From: a phage
DNA: 45,885 nt
Strand: one strand, 5' to 3'
Assembly (NCBI GenBank): GCA_021146325.1
Contig: GCA_021146325.1_4321.1
Shown here: positions 25,528 through 43,438 of the stretch, in pieces
How positions within the stretch are numbered: the first letter of the stretch is position 1
Layout of the letters: each line of letters starts with the position of its first letter
The notes under the pieces: model-generated
What the model saw: only the letters and a program-made list of their open reading frames with translations
Told to the model about the DNA's origin: nothing
The model's database searches: none
Position numbers and translations under genes: made by a program

Positions 25528-25603
25528 TGGTGTTCCGCACTGGACTCGAACCAGTAACTAAGACTTAGGAGGTCTTTGCGTTATCCTGTTACGCCAGCAG
25601 AAC
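25528..25603 (-). tRNA. tRNA-Arg (anticodon CCU)
   Basis: 76-nt cloverleaf folded by hand: 7-bp acceptor stem, D-arm GCGT/ACGC, anticodon loop CUCCUAA, T-arm ACTGG-TTCGAGT-CCAGT, 3' ACCA. Confidence 0.8.
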
Positions 25604-26185: not shown

Positions 26186-26272
26186 CAGCTCATTACAAGC
26201 AAAAGCATACCTACACCCGTTGCAATAGCAAGACCAACAGCAATAAAAGTTAACACTAAATCAATGATAATG

Positions 26273-26509
26273 TCATTCATAAAGGCTATTCCCATTCTCA
26301 TCATGACCCACACGCCCTCGACGATAGCCCGCTATCCACACAAACTTATCACGTGCGATTATCGTGGATACCGGCCCCCATATCTGAGTGATAAGCGCCG
26401 CAACAACCTTATCATCTTTCTTTTTTGCGCCCAATTTGCCGTATTCGTCATTCAGCTTGTCAGCCTGTCGCTTAACTGCGTTAAAGTATGCGTCGTCTAA
26501 CCCGAACAT
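26273..26509 (-). CDS. hypothetical protein
   Basis: 78-aa ORF downstream of a promoter cassette. Confidence 0.45.
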   Translation of the reverse strand: MFGLDDAYFNAVKRQADKLNDEYGKLGAKKKDDKVVAALITQIWGPVSTIIARDKFVWIAGYRRGRVGHDENGNSLYE

Positions 26510-27643: not shown

Positions 27644-27852
27644 TCTTCGACCACCTTGTACTCGCCTTCTTCAAAACTAACCATCTGTCCTATTGATACA
27701 AACTCAGTATCACGAATCGCTAGAGCTGATAAGCTACCGCACCTGTACCGACCGGTTACTTCTAATACGTCACCAACCTTAAACCCGCATTCTTCAAGTG
27801 TCAGAACGCCTTCTTCTGGTATGTAGTTCACGTCGATAATTTTAATTTTCAT
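27640..27852 (-). CDS. hypothetical protein
   Basis: 70-aa ORF directly downstream of a promoter cassette. Confidence 0.5.
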   Translation of the reverse strand: MKIKIIDVNYIPEEGVLTLEECGFKVGDVLEVTGRYRCGSLSALAIRDTEFVSIGQMVSFEEGEYKVVEE

Positions 27853-27883
27853 CTCTATACTCCATCTCGTTGTTGGTGTGGTA

Positions 27884-27929
27884 ATTATGCCATCCTTGGC
27901 GTCATATCGTTAGGCAAAAAGTGCTATTT
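27884..27929 (-). promoter_or_regulatory. promoter cassette copy (IR TAGCACTTTTTGCCT, 22 bp, CATAAT)
   Basis: IR core 27912..27926. Confidence 0.5.
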
Positions 27930-28001
27930 CCCACTCAGTAGTAATTTAGCTTTCCGATATAAATCCATAGCCACCTCAACCTCATCCTCACCGTACCGAA
28001 A

Positions 28002-28029
28002 GTGGTATGGTAGTAGACTACCATACCAC
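28002..28029. repeat. perfect 13-bp inverted repeat GTGGTATGGTAGT-AG-ACTACCATACCAC at the 3' end of gene 28029..28550
   Basis: read from sequence; on the minus strand the poly-U tail after it is short (UUUCGG). Confidence 0.7.
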
Positions 28030-28550
28030 TATTTAGTCTCCTTAATCATTTCTTGGTATGCGTTAATCATTGATACTGCACCCTTAAGTTCATCACCTTC
28101 AAGACCAGCGACGCTTGGTGATAGTTTCAACAATCGAGCCTTGAACCTTTCAATGGTAGCCGCCTCCTTCTCTTGCTCTGCCTTGCTTCTTGAGCCGGAT
28201 TTTACAGCGCCAGGAACCAGGCTAAGTGATGCGCAGTATGTCTCACTCTCGCCCTCAAAGTCGGTAAAACTAAGTGAGAACCTTGAGCGCACGTCAGCCG
28301 CCTTAATCTCAGGCATTCGGCTTACGGTGTTTGAAACGTATGACGCTTTTAGTTTTGGCATGTGGTATTCACCACCAGGTAGAACCTCCTCACCACTTAG
28401 CGATACGAACGTCTCACGACTCATGCCGAAGTATTGACGAGCAATCATGGTCACAGGGACTGTGCACACTTTGTCTTCTGACTTGAGCGCCTGACTCGCC
28501 ATGTATCGAATGATTTCACCCAAACTTACTGCTTCTTTATGTTCTGACAT
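28029..28550 (-). CDS. hypothetical early protein, first gene of the leftward accessory operon
   Basis: 173-aa ORF. Confidence 0.5.
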   Translation of the reverse strand: MSEHKEAVSLGEIIRYMASQALKSEDKVCTVPVTMIARQYFGMSRETFVSLSGEEVLPGGEYHMPKLKASYVSNTVSRMPEIKAADVRSRFSLSFTDFEGESETYCASLSLVPGAVKSGSRSKAEQEKEAATIERFKARLLKLSPSVAGLEGDELKGAVSMINAYQEMIKETK

Positions 28551-28649
28551 ATTCGTTACTCCTGATTGGTTGCTCTTCGTTAAGATGAAACCATGGTATC
28601 ATGAATATACGCGTTATCAAGTGTTATGTTGTGTTTATATCTGCATTGG

Positions 28650-28935
28650 TTACGCTTTTTGACCTCTCAGCCCAGCTATAGCTGGTGTAATTACCCTGTG
28701 TAAGATTTTACGCGGATTCGCCGGGGGTATGCATATGTATCTATATAGATAAAATTAGTAGTTTTCATAGAAAAACTATCGACCCATCCATACGACCAAT
28801 CTACACCATATACATACATATATATAATAATAATAATAATATAGTAAAAGGTTGATATATATAGATATTATTATGTAACCATTGCGTAATCTAGCGTGGT
28901 AGGCGTGTATGATTCTTCGGAAGCGCACCTCATAT
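28650..28935. repeat. AT-rich non-coding element B, homologous to element A at 2585..2880
   Basis: palindrome CCAGCTATAGCTGG at 28672..28685, (ATA)n, 65-bp block 28815..28879 nearly identical to 2766..2827. Confidence 0.8.
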
Positions 28936-29036
28936 ACACACCATAACTTCGATAACGTGTATATCCAAATTGGCTCAGCAAGAATCAAAATCAACTTGTA
29001 TGGTAGTTCATCCACCATTTATTCACCCTCACATCA

Positions 29037-29136
29037 ATCATTGCAAATCCCGCAACAATCAAAAACATCATTGCATTCGATGCAATATTGTTATATGTGC
29101 AATAGTAAGATTAATCATTGCAATATCTGCAATAAC
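29037..29136. repeat. iteron-like array: three ATCATTGCA and four TGCAATA copies, with perfect palindrome ATTGCAT-TCG-ATGCAAT at 29070..29086
   Basis: read from sequence; directly upstream of the first rightward promoter cassette. Confidence 0.65.
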
Positions 29137-29149
29137 ATATAAATCCAAC

Positions 29150-29195
29150 GAATAGCACTTTTTGCTAAAGACATTTAGGTATTGCGGAGTTATGG
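29150..29195 (+). promoter_or_regulatory. promoter cassette copy (IR TAGCACTTTTTGCTA, 22 bp, TTATGG)
   Basis: IR core 29153..29167. Confidence 0.5.
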
Positions 29196-29222
29196 TTCAC
29201 TCATCAACAACGAGGAGAGAGA

Positions 29223-29409
29223 TATGAAACTTAAAGACGAAGCATTTGAGCAATTAAAGCAGGAATGTGCGCTGATTGGATTGAACAATGACTATACTGA
29301 TATGGTTTTACGCGGACGCATCGATATCGACCTTGCTAAGCAATTCCAGTCAGATGATGAATATATGTGCTGCGATGGCCTCGGCTGCGACGAATGTTTA
29401 CCATGGTAA
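29223..29409 (+). CDS. hypothetical protein with C-terminal Cys cluster
   Basis: 62 aa from ATG 29223 (RBS AGGAGAGAG); ends CCDGLGCDEC. Confidence 0.5.
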
Positions 29410-29420
29410 GGAGCCGAATA

Positions 29421-29612
29421 ATGAAAGTTAAGTGCTTAAATAATCTTAATGATGGAACCTGGGAATTCAGTAGTTGAAAGCATTACAGTTATGATGAAAT
29501 TTATGGTTACGTAGTTGGTGATAACTTCAAGCCAGTTTACTGCTACATTGAAAATGGCCTTGTTATTGCCGCTGTTAAGCGTCGATTGATTTTTGAAATT
29601 TTAGAGGATTAA
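29421..29612 (+). pseudogene. small ORF with one in-frame TGA at codon 19 (29475..29477)
   Basis: the frame is open for 18 codons before and 44 codons after the TGA; no start codon after it. Confidence 0.4.
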
Positions 29613-29613
29613 C

Positions 29614-29817
29614 ATGAAACTTCTTTGCACTAACATAATTGAAGACTTTAACGACGCCTTCAATAAGGGCTCTGAATACAACGCTACCGAGTTTAAAAAT
29701 GATATGTGCCTTGTTACCGGCGAACGTCCACACAAGCATCACGACACGTTCCAGGCGCTTAAATGCCTTGATTACGTAATCATCCACGGCATCGCAACTT
29801 TTAAGGTGATTGAATAA
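29614..29817 (+). CDS. hypothetical protein
   Basis: 67-aa ORF with RBS GAGGA. Confidence 0.5.
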   Translation: MKLLCTNIIEDFNDAFNKGSEYNATEFKNDMCLVTGERPHKHHDTFQALKCLDYVIIHGIATFKVIE

Positions 29818-29981
29818 TGCTTTTACCATCTGAGATAAACTATTTCGATCTGGAAATGATTAGTGCTTACAGCGGAAAGGGTTGGCCTTGCGGGGACTGG
29901 TTTAACGAGGACCTGCTTGAGTCTCACGAGATTATGTTGAAGGCAATTGAGAAGGCCAGAAGAAATAGCACTAATTGCTAA
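29817..29981 (+). CDS. small hypothetical protein ending RRNSTNC
   Basis: 54-aa ORF; 3' end lies in the promoter motif. Confidence 0.4.
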   Translation: MLLPSEINYFDLEMISAYSGKGWPCGDWFNEDLLESHEIMLKAIEKARRNSTNC

Positions 29982-30008
29982 AACTCACCGCCACGGATGG
30001 CGTATATT
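29963..30008 (+). promoter_or_regulatory. promoter cassette copy (perfect IR TAGCACTAATTGCTA, 22 bp, TATATT, CATCGAAACGAAAGAGAG)
   Basis: IR core 29966..29980. Confidence 0.6.
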
Positions 30009-30040
30009 TACTCCATCGAAACGAAAGAGAGCAAGAGATC

Positions 30041-30202
30041 ATGTTCGACAACTTTTATGACGCGATGGAAGAGGCGGTTTTCAGGGCGTCGATAGATGGT
30101 AAGATTTACGGTTTAGTTCAGAAGTTTGATAAGATTGTTGTGCGTATTGTGCGCAAATCAGTACCAAACAAATTCATGTGGACAACTAAGAGATTAAAAT
30201 AA
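30041..30202 (+). CDS. small hypothetical protein
   Basis: 53 aa from ATG 30041, downstream of the cassette leader. Confidence 0.45.
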   Translation: MFDNFYDAMEEAVFRASIDGKIYGLVQKFDKIVVRIVRKSVPNKFMWTTKRLK

Positions 30203-30591
30203 TGACTACTACGATAACCAAAAATTTCATTAGCAACGACAACAAGCTATTTAAAGCTCGCGTTAAAAAGATTCACCAGTGGGTTAACGGTGTCGCTGAG
30301 GAAGTTGAATTTGAGCAAATCAAAAAAGACGGCAAATGGATCAACCTGGAAGAACGTGGAAAATACATTAAAACCAAAACTCTTTACTGCACAAAGGTTA
30401 ACCATAAGTCTGGCGTTAAGAAAGACTTCAAAGAAGGTAAGCGATACCAGGTCAACATGCATAGCTTACTTGGTCAGTCAGCTGGATACATTTACGATGA
30501 AGATGGCAACGCCTGGCAGCTATATCGCAGCGAAGATGTTGGCTTTTATACGTTGTGTGAAACTTACCACTTTGAGGCTCAATACAAATGA
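30202..30591 (+). CDS. hypothetical protein
   Basis: 129-aa ORF. Confidence 0.5.
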   Translation: MTTTITKNFISNDNKLFKARVKKIHQWVNGVAEEVEFEQIKKDGKWINLEERGKYIKTKTLYCTKVNHKSGVKKDFKEGKRYQVNMHSLLGQSAGYIYDEDGNAWQLYRSEDVGFYTLCETYHFEAQYK

Positions 30592-30758
30592 AATTATACA
30601 TTGTAAGTGGTTGCACACACTATGATGGAAGCGAAGTGATTGCCGCTTTCGATGAAGAATTCAAAGCACAGGAGTTTAAATATAACAAAGAAATATCTTC
30701 AGAAAATCACTTTGACTACTACAAGATAGATTGCATCTTACTAAATAGCACTAATTGA
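30588..30758 (+). CDS. small hypothetical protein ending LLNSTN
   Basis: 56-aa ORF; 3' end lies in the promoter motif. Confidence 0.4.
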   Translation: MKLYIVSGCTHYDGSEVIAAFDEEFKAQEFKYNKEISSENHFDYYKIDCILLNSTN

Positions 30759-30788
30759 TAATGCATTATAAGCGGCTATTGATATAAT
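30743..30788 (+). promoter_or_regulatory. promoter cassette copy (IR TAGCACTAATTGATA, 22 bp, TATAAT)
   Basis: IR core 30746..30760. Confidence 0.55.
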
Positions 30789-30817
30789 GGCCGCTCATAA
30801 CAACACGGAGAGAAGTA

Positions 30818-32401
30818 ATGTTTGATTTCAACGAAGATAAACTATCTGTTGAGCAGATTATGGCAATCGCTGCCAATGACAACCTACCACCGCTTCGCGT
30901 GGCTATTAATGCCAATGGCTATCGACAGTCTCAATCGTTCTGGAAAGCACCTGTCGAGATTGATACAGGTAATGATAAGTATCCAGTAATCTCACTCGGT
31001 AATGATATTGATGTTGTTGGTAAGCTATCGGCTAATATCGCTCGCTCGGTTCAGTTCCCTGAGTCGTCAGCTTACATGCACTTTCTTGGTTGTGTTTCTG
31101 CTGCAATGCTTGGGCGTTTTACTGTCGAGTATCATGGAACCCAACAGCCAACATCTTTGTACGTGGTAACAAGTCAGCCGCCTTCAACTGGTAAATCAGC
31201 CATTAACTCGCTATCAATTGCGCCGATGATTGCTGAGACTGAGCGGTTGAATGAAGTACGTAAACGTGATCGAAAAAAGATTATGGCTAAACTGTCCGCT
31301 CTGGCTAAAGAGATGAAGCAGGAAAAATCACCTTCTGAAATGGCTTCACTTTTTGAGGAGAAGGAGGATTTAGAGGAGAAGCTCGAGAAGCTATGCGATA
31401 TAGTATTCCCTGTCTCCGATACTACTCCGGAAGGTCTTGCGCGAATCAACAATCGCCAGGGTAGTTTTGCGGTAATCTCTGATGAGGCTACTAGCGTCAA
31501 CTCACTGTTAGGCATGACTTACGGTGATGGCTCGAAGAAAACGAACAGCGAGCTCGTGCTGAAAGCATGGGATGCAGGTAATGTGTCAATTGCCCGTGCG
31601 AACGCAGAAAATAACATGAGCTTTGTGGCTATGGGATGCATCTCCGTAATTGCTCAGGATGAAACAATCAATGCCATTATGAATGCTGGTGCGCGTGGTA
31701 TTGGTGTATCTGAGCGTTTCCTTCTGGTGCGTGAAAAATCATTTCTTGGCGACCGTGTATTTGTTGATGAAAATGGTGATTCAACCTATGAGGCTATTGA
31801 TGGCGGCCTGAAAGCAGACTATTTCCGTCTTGTTCATGAGATTATGAATGAAGTTGAAGTGAAACTTACTGTAAGCGCGTCATCAATGCGTTACCTTAAC
31901 CGCGCTCGTCAAGAGATGGAGCCTCATCTTGGTGATGGTGGCAAGTATTCTCACACAATGTTGCGCGGTGCTCTTGGTAAGTTTGATAAGCAAGCAATCC
32001 GCATCGCTTCTGTTCTGCACGTAATTCGTAACTGGTTCTCACCAGCCGGATCCAGCCCTCAAAAGTCAAGAGAGATTGAACTGGATACAATGCAGGAAGC
32101 GGTTATGATTTTCAACGAACTAAGCAAGACTTATTTATCATCCGCTAGTGCTGCTGGTCATGCTGGTGACAATGCCGAGATGAACAAGCTGGTTGATATC
32201 CTGATTAAGCAGGGCAAGAATGGTAAAGGTGTTGTTGGTGTTCGCTCGTTGTATGAGGCTGCACGCAAGGTTAAACCTTTTGAAGGTCAGGCTGGAATTA
32301 TGACTCGCATTAAGGACCACTTGATTCCTATGCTTGATGAGAAAAACTACACATGCCTGATTGGTGATAAAATTTACATTAATCCACGATTGCTGGGGTA
32401 A
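30818..32401 (+). CDS. P-loop NTPase-like protein of unknown function, possibly replication-associated
   Basis: 527-aa ORF with Walker A-like SQPPSTGKSA. Confidence 0.5.
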   Translation: MFDFNEDKLSVEQIMAIAANDNLPPLRVAINANGYRQSQSFWKAPVEIDTGNDKYPVISLGNDIDVVGKLSANIARSVQFPESSAYMHFLGCVSAAMLGRFTVEYHGTQQPTSLYVVTSQPPSTGKSAINSLSIAPMIAETERLNEVRKRDRKKIMAKLSALAKEMKQEKSPSEMASLFEEKEDLEEKLEKLCDIVFPVSDTTPEGLARINNRQGSFAVISDEATSVNSLLGMTYGDGSKKTNSELVLKAWDAGNVSIARANAENNMSFVAMGCISVIAQDETINAIMNAGARGIGVSERFLLVREKSFLGDRVFVDENGDSTYEAIDGGLKADYFRLVHEIMNEVEVKLTVSASSMRYLNRARQEMEPHLGDGGKYSHTMLRGALGKFDKQAIRIASVLHVIRNWFSPAGSSPQKSREIELDTMQEAVMIFNELSKTYLSSASAAGHAGDNAEMNKLVDILIKQGKNGKGVVGVRSLYEAARKVKPFEGQAGIMTRIKDHLIPMLDEKNYTCLIGDKIYINPRLLG

Positions 32402-39930: not shown

Positions 39931-40910
39931 CTTGTGCCGACCTCGTTGTTATTGATACTGAGTAAAGCTCTCTCTTTTTCTTGCCGCCAATATAGCTTCT
40001 AACCTTAACTCCGTCATTAGCAATAAATGCTATTAGCGCATCAGCTACTGATTGAACTTCACGCCTGCTAAATGATTCGGTGTGGATTTCTACAACCCTC
40101 TTCCCTGAGCTTACAGTGCAATGACCATCATCACCAAAGTAAGCAGCCCAACCAACTGGATCAAGCTCTCTGCATATCTTTCCAATATCGTAACCATCCT
40201 TAGAATTTCCGTACTTATCAGCATATGAATCCAGAACTTTCGTACATGATGTTGATACGCAAAACCAGTTGTCGCCAAATCCAGGGTTTTTCTTCTCCCT
40301 GTATCTAGGGTTTAGTTTTGCAAACCTTTCAACCTTGCTTAGTGCGTGCTCCTTATTTCCAATATTCCAAGATGGCCTATGCGTTCCTTTTCTGTATTTT
40401 TAATCAAGCAACCATCACCAGCCATTGCCGCAAGAATGTTTTGATGTAAAAAGTCATCAACCTCCATTGATGGGTTGACGGTTGAATTATGATGCCCCGT
40501 TCTGTAATCCAAATAGAAATCGAAAGGGTTCTTAAGAAGTACGCCTAACCCCTTGCTTGAATGCGGCATAACTTTTTCACCACAGCCACACTTGCACGCA
40601 GGAGCTTTTTCGTAAATTTGTCCTGCGAGCCGTCTAGCGACAGATTCATCCCAATACAAAGTTTTCCCGCTCCGACCCAGCAGCCGTTCGAATAAAGTTT
40701 GTGTGTACTCGTGCATTTTATTTCCTCTCCGCTTTCTAATTTAATTGATGATACATGTCTTACACCATTAGTAAAAACTCTTTTTGGCTTATGATAGAAG
40801 TAATCACCAGTGCTTTCGTTTATGCATTTTATTTTATGATTGATAAGGTCTTCGCTATCAATCCTCATCATCCCTGAATCGGTGGTTATCATCGTGTCTC
40901 CAGTTAAGCA
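39772..40910 (-). mobile_element. split intein in helicase motif II: N-intein 40548..40910, endonuclease-like remnants, C-intein 39772..39930
   Basis: blocks A (CLTGDTMI), B (IKCTSTHKLY) and G (HNFIADGVVAHN-C); N-intein ends in a stop after 121 residues; intein DNA is 1139 bp, not a multiple of 3. Confidence 0.7.
39863..40740 (-). pseudogene. homing-endonuclease-like remnant split over two reading frames between the intein halves
   Basis: frame 1 ORF 40339..40716 (Cys cluster CKCGCG; ...AMAGDG...), frame 2 open 39863..40399 without a start codon (...IAFIANDG...); family not assignable by eye. Confidence 0.4.
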
Positions 40911-41354
40911 CTCATCTATCGCGATAACAGCAGGAGCATAGTCACCAAGCCCCTTAAACAAGCCGTTAGCAGCCGTTCCCTCACTAGCCACTATGGTTGG
41001 ATAGTAAACTGATTTAACGTTAAGGCCAGCGCAATAGACGCTATTACGGATGCCGAAATTACGAAGTTCCTCTGCGTTCTGGCTGATAATCTCTGACTGG
41101 CGAGATAGGACCATGTAAGGAAGGCCAAGCTGTTCCATTCGTTTCCCAATCATGGCGAGAATAATCGTCTTGCCAGCCGAAACCGATAGGTCTGCTATGA
41201 ATGGCGCTTCGTACTTGCCAATAGCCTTTCCGATTGCGTCAAATGTCACGCACTGGAATGGGTATGGTGTGATTTCTCCGAACTGATAATCATTTTGAAT
41301 CTGCTTGATTTTATCTTGGTCAAAGTTTGCTACTAAGCGTTCTACTGGAAGCAT
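40545..41354 (-). CDS. SF2 helicase N-terminal gene: N-extein (Walker A SVSAGKT ... IAIDE) plus N-intein
   Basis: 269-aa ORF; the extein junction would rebuild IAIDE-CHMV, a DECH box. Confidence 0.75.
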   Translation of the reverse strand: MLPVERLVANFDQDKIKQIQNDYQFGEITPYPFQCVTFDAIGKAIGKYEAPFIADLSVSAGKTIILAMIGKRMEQLGLPYMVLSRQSEIISQNAEELRNFGIRNSVYCAGLNVKSVYYPTIVASEGTAANGLFKGLGDYAPAVIAIDECLTGDTMITTDSGMMRIDSEDLINHKIKCINESTGDYFYHKPKRVFTNGVRHVSSIKLESGEEIKCTSTHKLYSNGCWVGAGKLCIGMNLSLDGSQDKFTKKLLRASVAVVKKLCRIQARG

Positions 41355-41394
41355 TTTAAATATCCTGATAGTTCTTTAGTTCGTTGCATTGATG

Positions 41395-41440
41395 TATAAT
41401 AACAGCCATAGAACCCATTGTTTAACAAAAAGTGCTATTG
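41395..41440 (-). promoter_or_regulatory. promoter cassette copy (IR TAGCACTTTTTGTTA, 22 bp, ATTATA) driving the helicase gene
   Basis: IR core 41423..41437, only 14 bp from the divergent HTH gene start. Confidence 0.5.
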
Positions 41441-41450
41441 AGGTAATGAG

Positions 41451-41924
41451 ATGTGTGAAATTGACAAGCGAACTATTAACGGCAATAACGGGACCGTCCG
41501 CACGCAAGACAAGAAGCAACGCAAGCGACCTTCAGGCTACTACGTATTGAAAGATGAAGTAAAGGCTGGTCTACGCGCGCGTCTGGAAATGATTCTTGAT
41601 TTCTACGGCACGAAAGCCAATATCGCCAAGCAGTTAAATGTATCTCACCAGACTGTAGAACAATGGTTTAATCGCGGGATGATTTCGGCTCGAGGGGCTC
41701 AGAGAGCGCATAATGCGTACAAGCGAAATAAGGAAGGGTTCCGAGCTACATTCTGCCGACCAGACCTGCAATTCGACGGTAACGGAAAGCCGCTAACACT
41801 TCGATGCAAGAAACGCCATATGCTTCGCGTAGTTACCGAGGCAGAACTAGCAATAAAACCACCCTGTCGACCGTGGCGCAAGAATAAGATTGCTAACGAA
41901 GCAGCACGAAAAGCTAAAGGGTAA
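41451..41924 (+). CDS. Cro/YdaS-like HTH DNA-binding protein, putative transcription regulator
   Basis: HTH GTKANIAKQLNVSHQTVEQWFNRG; basic C-terminal half. Confidence 0.55.
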   Translation: MCEIDKRTINGNNGTVRTQDKKQRKRPSGYYVLKDEVKAGLRARLEMILDFYGTKANIAKQLNVSHQTVEQWFNRGMISARGAQRAHNAYKRNKEGFRATFCRPDLQFDGNGKPLTLRCKKRHMLRVVTEAELAIKPPCRPWRKNKIANEAARKAKG

Positions 41925-41930
41925 GTGATT

Positions 41931-41963
41931 GGATGTGCCATAATAGGCACATCCTTTTTTATT
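41931..41963 (+). terminator. rho-independent terminator after the HTH gene
   Basis: hairpin GGATGTGCC-ATAATA-GGCACATCC then TTTTTTATT. Confidence 0.7.
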
Positions 41964-41975
41964 GGAGAGAAGAAA

Positions 41976-42455
41976 ATGAACTGGCATGATTATTTTTACT
42001 ATGTAGATGGCAAATTGCATTGGAAGATTAGCACTGCAAGACGTGTTAAGGTTGGCGATGAGTGCAACTCACTATCTACATCTGGCTATTACAAAGTGTC
42101 TGTTAATGGCTTTAGGACTTATGTACATAGAGTTGTGTGGGAGATGTTTAATGGATAACTTCAAAATGGCGACTACATTGATCATATAAACCATAACAAA
42201 TTAGATAACAGAATAGAAAACCTAAGAGTAACAACAAATCAAGGTAACTCAAGAAATTGCAAGCTTAGCGTTTTATCAACAACTGGTTATTGTGGAGTGG
42301 CAAAGCTAAATCACGGAAAATTTAAGGCTCACATCACGGTTGACGGCAAGCAGCTACACCTTGGTAACTTCGATACTCCAGAACGGGCGTATAAAGTAAG
42401 AATTGAAGCAGAGAGAAAATACAACTTTCACGAAAATAACGGGTTAAGCAAATGA
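41976..42455 (+). pseudogene. HNH homing endonuclease with AP2-like DNA-binding domain, interrupted by in-frame TAA at 42156..42158
   Basis: ...VHRVVWEMFNG [TAA] LQNGDYIDHINHNKLDNRIENLRVTTNQ...GYCGVAKLNHGKFKAHITVDGKQLHLGNFDTPERAY; same frame before and after the stop. Confidence 0.6.
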
Positions 42456-43375
42456 ATTACGATAAGAATGAAGTTATACCTAAGATGGCCGGATTGTGGA
42501 AATCATTTTATGTAAAGGAACTTGGTTGGAATGATAGACACATAAGTAAGAAGCACGGACCATGCCCATGCTGCTTTGGCACTGACAGATTCAGATTTAC
42601 CGACGAAATAGGCAGTGAAAAAGGAAATGGCGCGGCAGTTTGTTCGAAATGCGGAAGTGACTCCGGTATAGGATGGGTCATGAAGTGCACCGGATTGTCC
42701 TTCGCCGATTCAGTAAATTTGCTTGGTGACTGGCTGAACTTAACACCAATTGAGGTTATAGTTAAAGCAAACAAGCAAGCCTCGAGAACTAAGCGTTACA
42801 AAATGGGCGCTCAAGTCGACCATGAGAAAGTCCTGGAGGTTATGGAGAGAACTAAGAGAGTGGAATCGAGTCCACTCACGACATACGAGGGTATTTATGA
42901 CGCGTTTGGTTTTGATGTTGGTATAGCTAAAAATGGTTCAATGATTCACGCAATCCCTTGTTCGATGGTTTATGAAGATGGGCTTAGTGATGAGTTCTGT
43001 AACGTAATGTTTATTGATGAGGATTCAAATGTTAAGTTCCTTGCTGGTGATTACACTCGTGATTCTGTTTCCGTTATTGGTTCTAAGCAGGATGATAGTT
43101 ATACTTATGTTGTTGACAATTATATTGATGGCATACGTGTTCACCTTGCTACTGGTGGGCGCGAAGTGTTTGTTGCTTTCTCCTGTTACAATATGGAGAT
43201 GGTTATCCACCGCGACAAGTCAAGGAAGTTCAGAATTGCTTGCCGTGATTCTGATAGCGATATACTCGCTGTTGCTGACGATAGGGGTGTTGATGTTGTA
43301 GTTCCTAATGACGGTGAGTCATTTAAAACAGGCATACGAAAGAAAGTGTACAAAGCAAACGACTTGCTAAACTAA
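42452..43375 (+). CDS. DNA primase (zinc-binding plus catalytic domains)
   Basis: N-terminal Cys4 zinc-finger-like CPCCFG...CSKCG, 307 aa; upstream of the helicase in the replication region. Confidence 0.7.
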   Translation: MNYDKNEVIPKMAGLWKSFYVKELGWNDRHISKKHGPCPCCFGTDRFRFTDEIGSEKGNGAAVCSKCGSDSGIGWVMKCTGLSFADSVNLLGDWLNLTPIEVIVKANKQASRTKRYKMGAQVDHEKVLEVMERTKRVESSPLTTYEGIYDAFGFDVGIAKNGSMIHAIPCSMVYEDGLSDEFCNVMFIDEDSNVKFLAGDYTRDSVSVIGSKQDDSYTYVVDNYIDGIRVHLATGGREVFVAFSCYNMEMVIHRDKSRKFRIACRDSDSDILAVADDRGVDVVVPNDGESFKTGIRKKVYKANDLLN

Positions 43376-43398
43376 CCTCCTTCGGGAGGTTTTTTATT
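43374..43398 (+). terminator. rho-independent terminator after the primase gene
   Basis: hairpin CCTCC-TTCG-GGAGG then TTTTTTATTG. Confidence 0.7.
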
Positions 43399-43423
43399 GC
43401 CTGAAAGATGGTAGAATGAATTT

Positions 43424-43438
43424 TGGCAATTAGTGCTA
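43424..43438. promoter_or_regulatory. orphan copy of the IR motif (TGGCAATTAGTGCTA) just upstream of the tail fiber gene
   Basis: IR present but no correctly spaced -10 in either direction. Confidence 0.3.

Follow-up and report, generated by a model that had tools for sequence, protein, structure and literature searches.

In a phage genome, a small reading frame opens behind a Shine-Dalgarno sequence and is broken after 18 codons by an in-frame UGA, beyond which the same frame stays open to its end. Is this a gene recently lost to a nonsense mutation, a gene whose full-length product is made by reading through its stop, a recoded codon, or an error in the sequence? The original prediction had left the first two of these readings side by side. 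We examined the question in the window, by which we mean the whole 45,885-nucleotide stretch of DNA that was analysed, through comparison with related phages and metagenome contigs.

The window is a T1-like coliphage of the Drexlerviridae, subfamily Braunvirinae. Its nearest GenBank genomes, AN_ECEAS and ES, share ~93% identity with it across most of the right half. The locus lies just to the right of an intergenic region of ~670 bp (28551-29223), and in phage TR1 a small CDS within the equivalent region is annotated as the initial headful packaging site. The interrupted gene is the second cistron in a rightward run of small ORFs, which leads into a DUF3987 protein (30818-32401) that is a replication protein; the layout of the genes makes it plausible that this operon is early. 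To the left of the intergenic region, at about 26188-26509 on the minus strand, the homologue of a 110-aa gene of the metagenome-derived contig L005 (see below) aligns in two pieces, with a break near 26275. The homologue in the window has a 78-aa form like that of AN_ECEAS, representing either a frameshift or a length polymorphism of a small ORF.

The coordinates and frame layout originally described for the locus are exactly those found in the sequence (Table 1). The gene starts at ATG 29421-29423, 7 nt downstream of its Shine-Dalgarno sequence, which overlaps the TAA (29407-29409) of the upstream, 61-aa gene. Eighteen sense codons, reading MKVKCLNNLNDGTWEFSS, are closed by the TGA, and the base that follows it is A. 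Past the TGA, 44 in-frame sense codons (KHYSYDEIYGYVVGDNFKPVYCYIENGLVIAAVKRRLIFEILED, beginning KHYSY and ending EILED) continue to a TAA at 29610-29612, and the next gene encodes a 67-aa product that matches phrog_4448. The prediction that no start codon follows the TGA holds in effect, but not to the letter. An in-frame TTG is present at 29586-29588, the only ATG, GTG or TTG in this frame past the TGA, but it would yield only 8 residues and is not a useful restart. Three ATGs lie near the stop (29491, 29494 and 29503), each of them in the +1 frame.

Table 1. Features of the interrupted gene, its downstream neighbour and the second interrupted gene of the window.
Feature	Position	Strand	Remarks
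Shine-Dalgarno AAGGAG of the interrupted gene	29408..29413	+	Read from the sequence; same arrangement in the orthologue alignment
Truncated frame (ATG, 17 more codons, premature TGA)	29421..29477	+	Predicted 18-aa peptide MKVKCLNNLNDGTWEFSS
Premature stop TGA	29475..29477	+	Gly codon (GGA or GGG) apparently altered by G>T at 29475
Gene remnant, predicted to be untranslated	29478..29612	+	44 sense codons and the original TAA, with no frameshift or second stop
GAGGA (29604-29608) and ATG 29614 of the next gene	29604..29616	+	Read from the sequence
HNH homing endonuclease gene, interrupted	41976-42455	+	TAA 42156-42158 where the RobRod40 and TR1 orthologues have GAA (Glu)

Two open segments in one frame are not in themselves a sign of a broken gene. 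The six frames of the window contain over 300 pairs of similarly sized open segments that share a frame, and because the bare pattern is so common, it is homology, rather than the statistics of ORFs, that carries the case for an interrupted gene. Both halves of the gene align end to end with intact ORFs of 63-66 aa in other phages. These intact orthologues are present in seven GenBank phages (TR1, TR2, TR3, Rao1, CY1, phiA2-1 and SU57), in the same place and between the same neighbours as in the window, the most distant being that of SU57 (48% identity). Two metagenome-derived contigs also contain an intact orthologue: ERZ27230487 (locus L005, protein P0001) and SRR10168433 (locus L010, protein P0002). 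The N-termini of both proteins are identical to the 18-aa peptide of the window.

Eight orthologues were aligned, from six of the GenBank phages (all but TR3) and the two metagenome contigs. It had been proposed that the prediction would fail if orthologues ended at the equivalent of codon 18; none of the eight does, and all are intact. The column occupied by the TGA in the window is Gly in 8/8, including SU57, and the codon opposite the TGA is GGA in TR1, TR2 and L005 and GGG in phiA2-1. The closest orthologue, that of L005, differs from the window gene at only 2 of 192 nt. One is a G/T difference at 29475, which makes the stop, and the other is a G/T difference at 29574, where the encoded residue is Val in the window, Phe in L005 and Ile in the others. 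The comparison gives no means of showing that selection was relaxed after the stop, because this closest intact relative shows no synonymous differences from the window gene. The TGA appears to be derived and very recent, the product of a G>T transversion at 29475 that would have changed the Gly19 codon from GGA to TGA. Exact-pattern scans of IMG/VR and JGI metagenome contigs for either allele returned no match.

The intact orthologues also allowed selection on the two halves of the frame to be assessed separately. By the Nei-Gojobori method, pairwise dN/dS among them was 0.16-0.25 for the whole gene, 0.10-0.35 for the N-terminal 18 codons and 0.16-0.31 for the C-terminal 44 codons. dN/dS is low in both halves, and the full-length ORF is therefore a real gene encoding one protein. 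A downstream frame devoid of conservation, the other outcome that was to count against the prediction, is contradicted by these values, which place that frame under purifying selection.

The normal product is a 63-aa hypothetical protein of a very small, phage-only family. Searches of Pfam and PHROGs with the repaired protein found no family, and an exhaustive phmmer search with P0001 against 1.8 billion representative proteins found one other cluster of small proteins, P0005 (SU57-like). The remaining phmmer hits were giant proteins with bacterial cadherin-like/Big_9 repeats, each with 3-13 matched stretches. The resemblance lies in residues 10-42 of P0001, DGTWEFSSGKHYSYDEIYGYVVGDN (window 29448-29546), and is to the repeated strand motif DGTWTYTP...G.DSFxYTVxD of the cadherin-like/Big_9 domains in these giant surface proteins, the matched pattern being DGTWxY...G.D.FxYxVxD. 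Homology to these repeats was considered and set aside, the hits being regarded as likeness to a short beta-strand motif inflated by the number of repeats. The motif may be a hint of a small beta-rich fold, or a coincidence. An AlphaFold2 model built on a three-sequence alignment was unusable (pLDDT 46, pTM 0.22).

ES and AN_ECEAS, the closest relatives of the window overall, are cleanly devoid of the interrupted gene. In ES, the TAA and Shine-Dalgarno sequence of the upstream gene are followed at once by the start codon (ATG) of what is, in the window, the downstream gene. Since the gene is cleanly absent from these two phages, it is dispensable. The interrupted gene and the next gene (29614-29817) have in common an N-terminal MKxxCxN..D...F..G..Y..E (BLASTP E = 0.001 over 26 residues). 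ES and AN_ECEAS are without the first of these genes exactly from start codon to start codon (locus L003, 1690-1740). The shared N-terminus tentatively suggests that the two genes may be tandem paralogues, gained and lost by recombination between their 5' ends.

The stop at 29475 had been described as the second in-frame stop inside an otherwise coherent gene of this window, and the other one is indeed present, within a gene for an HNH homing endonuclease. That gene has ~98% nucleotide identity to intact genes of RobRod40, DTL, TR1 and others among the ten best matches listed, and at the position of its TAA the RobRod40 and TR1 orthologues read GAA (Glu), a G>T difference on the plus strand. 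The number of such interruptions was determined by comparing the window with every gene annotated or called in AN_ECEAS and in contig L005, ~65 genes in all; this gene-by-gene comparison replaced an open-segment scan and an all-ORF tblastn search, both of which were too noisy. Only two internal stops were found among the compared genes, TGA 29475 and TAA 42156, and the large genes of the window contained neither frameshifts nor stops.

These results bear on the reading in which base 29475 is truly G, the gene is intact, and the stop is a sequencing or consensus error. Such an error would fit a single-base difference from the closest relative, and it would fit the shared nature of the two in-frame stops, each a G>T change on the same strand, a class of change associated with oxidative damage in library preparation. 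However, Logan contigs of run DRR314303, a run that contains this same phage, match the window with 100% identity over 27724-31317, a stretch of ~3.6 kb that includes the TGA at 29475 (DRR314303_319, 8282 bp), and over 39951-43424, which reproduces the TAA at 42156 (DRR314303_226, 12921 bp; loci L013, L014 and L015). This separate re-assembly of reads, perhaps those of the window's own source run, argues against an assembly or editing artefact. When substitutions specific to the window were polarised with L005 and AN_ECEAS, 19 of 237 were G>T, as compared to 19/345 and 30/368 in the two relatives. The spectrum is thus ordinary, and the idea of a genome-wide G>T signature, mutational or artefactual, that might link the two stops was rejected. 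The large essential genes are free of any frameshift or stop, and both stops lie in demonstrably dispensable genes, as expected of tolerated real mutations and not of random errors. We consider an error at 29475 very unlikely. Given the ordinary spectrum, the occurrence of G>T nonsense changes twice on the same strand is treated as coincidence, and each of the two stops arose on its own, by a single-base change in a non-essential gene.

If the allele is real, the gene could still function through low-level readthrough, with Trp-tRNA(Trp) competing against RF2 at the UGA, a 63-aa Gly19Trp protein being made, and the stop serving as an attenuator. The 44 codons downstream of the stop are fully open and nearly identical to those of the intact orthologue, which would also fit a gene still in use. 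The base after the stop is A, and UGA-A is one of the leakier termination contexts in E. coli. Phage Q-beta makes its A1 protein through a leaky UGA. In E. coli, Trp-tRNA(Trp) is documented to compete with RF2 for UGA codons, with extended proteins as the result (PMC10570021). Some full-length protein is probably made by leak at the UGA-A of the window. Use of the gene by this route is nevertheless unlikely. The stop is conserved at codon 19 in 0/8 aligned orthologues, and the residue it replaces is an invariant Gly of the family. Five ordinary genes of the same phage end in TGA-A, and the mutation is young enough to account in full for the remnant still being open, the gene being only 2/192 nt from that of L005. 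A structure that might stimulate readthrough was also missing: the 71 nt from the UGA onward fold at -10.5 kcal/mol, no better than shuffled sequences (z = 0.13), and the fold of the whole gene is no better than shuffles either (z = 0.79). Folding revealed no SECIS-like hairpin or other stable structure downstream of the UGA. Readthrough as a programmed mechanism, the second of the two readings first put forward, is thus not borne out, given a stop that is not conserved, that has no stimulatory structure or SECIS, and that replaces an invariant Gly.

The same results weigh on the idea that the UGA is recoded, as selenocysteine or under an alternative code in which UGA specifies Gly or Trp. UGA specifies Gly in genetic code 25, and the Gly of the orthologous codon is the sole point in favour of recoding. 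Against it, the window is an E. coli phage, with the standard code; TGA is the terminator of 14 of its 63 genes, with A as the next base in 5 of these, and occurs inside a gene only once among the ~65 compared. A single tRNA is encoded in the window, tRNA-Arg(CCU) (25528-25603, minus strand), and no UGA-decoding or suppressor tRNA is present. The CCU anticodon of this tRNA reads the rare AGG codon. A search of Rfam at a permissive threshold gave only noise (best E at least 0.65, unrelated families), the SECIS-like hairpin is missing, and the orthologues have Gly at the site, neither Cys nor Sec. Selenocysteine, code reassignment and a suppressor tRNA were ruled out by the data on structure, Rfam, tRNA, TGA usage and orthologues, and recoding of any kind is exceedingly improbable.

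With eight of eight orthologues intact and carrying Gly, and with the downstream frame under purifying selection, the nonsense-pseudogene reading of the original prediction is upheld. We conclude, with a probability of roughly 0.8, that the locus carries a recent nonsense allele with loss of function, neutral or nearly so, in a small accessory gene that the phage does not need. The kind of event is already known, an ordinary newly made pseudogene. We infer that the allele is non-functional and neutral or nearly neutral in its effect on the phage.

On this account, ribosomes would start at ATG 29421 and be released by RF2 at codon 19, giving an 18-residue peptide. The 135 nt past the stop (44 codons and the TAA) would be left untranslated, except for the low background misreading by Trp-tRNA(Trp) to which any UGA is subject in E. 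coli; this would produce a Gly19Trp protein in an amount far below the normal level. The next gene has its own ribosome-binding site, and should therefore be translatable without coupling to the interrupted gene. The untranslated remnant is poor in C (17 C versus 29 G), and for this reason would be a poor candidate for a Rho utilisation site. Because of this low C content and the Shine-Dalgarno sequence of the next gene, little polarity on the rest of the operon would be expected.

The loss might also have been adaptive. The 63-aa early protein could be harmful in the propagation host, for example if sensed by a host defence, and the opal codon would then be an escape mutation. UGA leak would possibly preserve a trickle of the protein, and the stop in the HNH gene would be unrelated decay. 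The only facts that support selection are the very recent date of the mutation, its position at an invariant residue early in the gene, and the variable presence of the gene, none of which is specific to it. We consider an adaptive knockout quite improbable. Should the allele be shown to have been selected, the gene would become a candidate host-interaction factor.

The chief consequence of loss of function by a recent nonsense mutation lies in annotation. A pseudogene label, naming the locus as a disrupted orthologue of the hypothetical protein of TR1, phiA2-1 and SU57, is appropriate; labels of a readthrough gene or of two separate ORFs are not. The allele also provides evidence, in the form of a natural experiment, that phages of the Braunvirinae can do without this ORFan early gene, in agreement with its absence from ES and AN_ECEAS. 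The presence of two in-frame stops in the window should not be taken as a sign of recoding or of poor assembly.

Comparison with known systems places the locus in a familiar class. Selenocysteine recoding in bacteria likewise involves an in-frame UGA within a coding sequence, but the window has no SECIS-like hairpin, and the residue found at the site in the orthologues is Gly, neither Cys nor Sec; to our knowledge, no selenocysteine recoding system is known in the T1-like/Braunvirinae phage group. The readthrough from coat protein to A1 in Q-beta is similar in that an E. coli phage UGA is followed by an open extension, on which the same Trp-tRNA(Trp)/RF2 machinery would act. In Q-beta, however, the stop is conserved and essential and separates two functional products, whereas the stop of the window falls within one small domain, takes the place of an invariant Gly, and occurs in no relative. 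A parallel in kind is found in the same genome, in the HNH gene, likewise dispensable, where G>T has made a stop out of the sense codon GAA; there the stop is TAA and the gene belongs to a different class, that of selfish mobile endonucleases. With nonsense (opal) pseudogenes, the locus shares a single, apparently derived base change, an ORF that is intact and constrained in relatives, dispensability, and the absence of a restart codon. Nothing material sets it apart from them, the sole peculiarity being that the event is too recent for further decay to have accrued.
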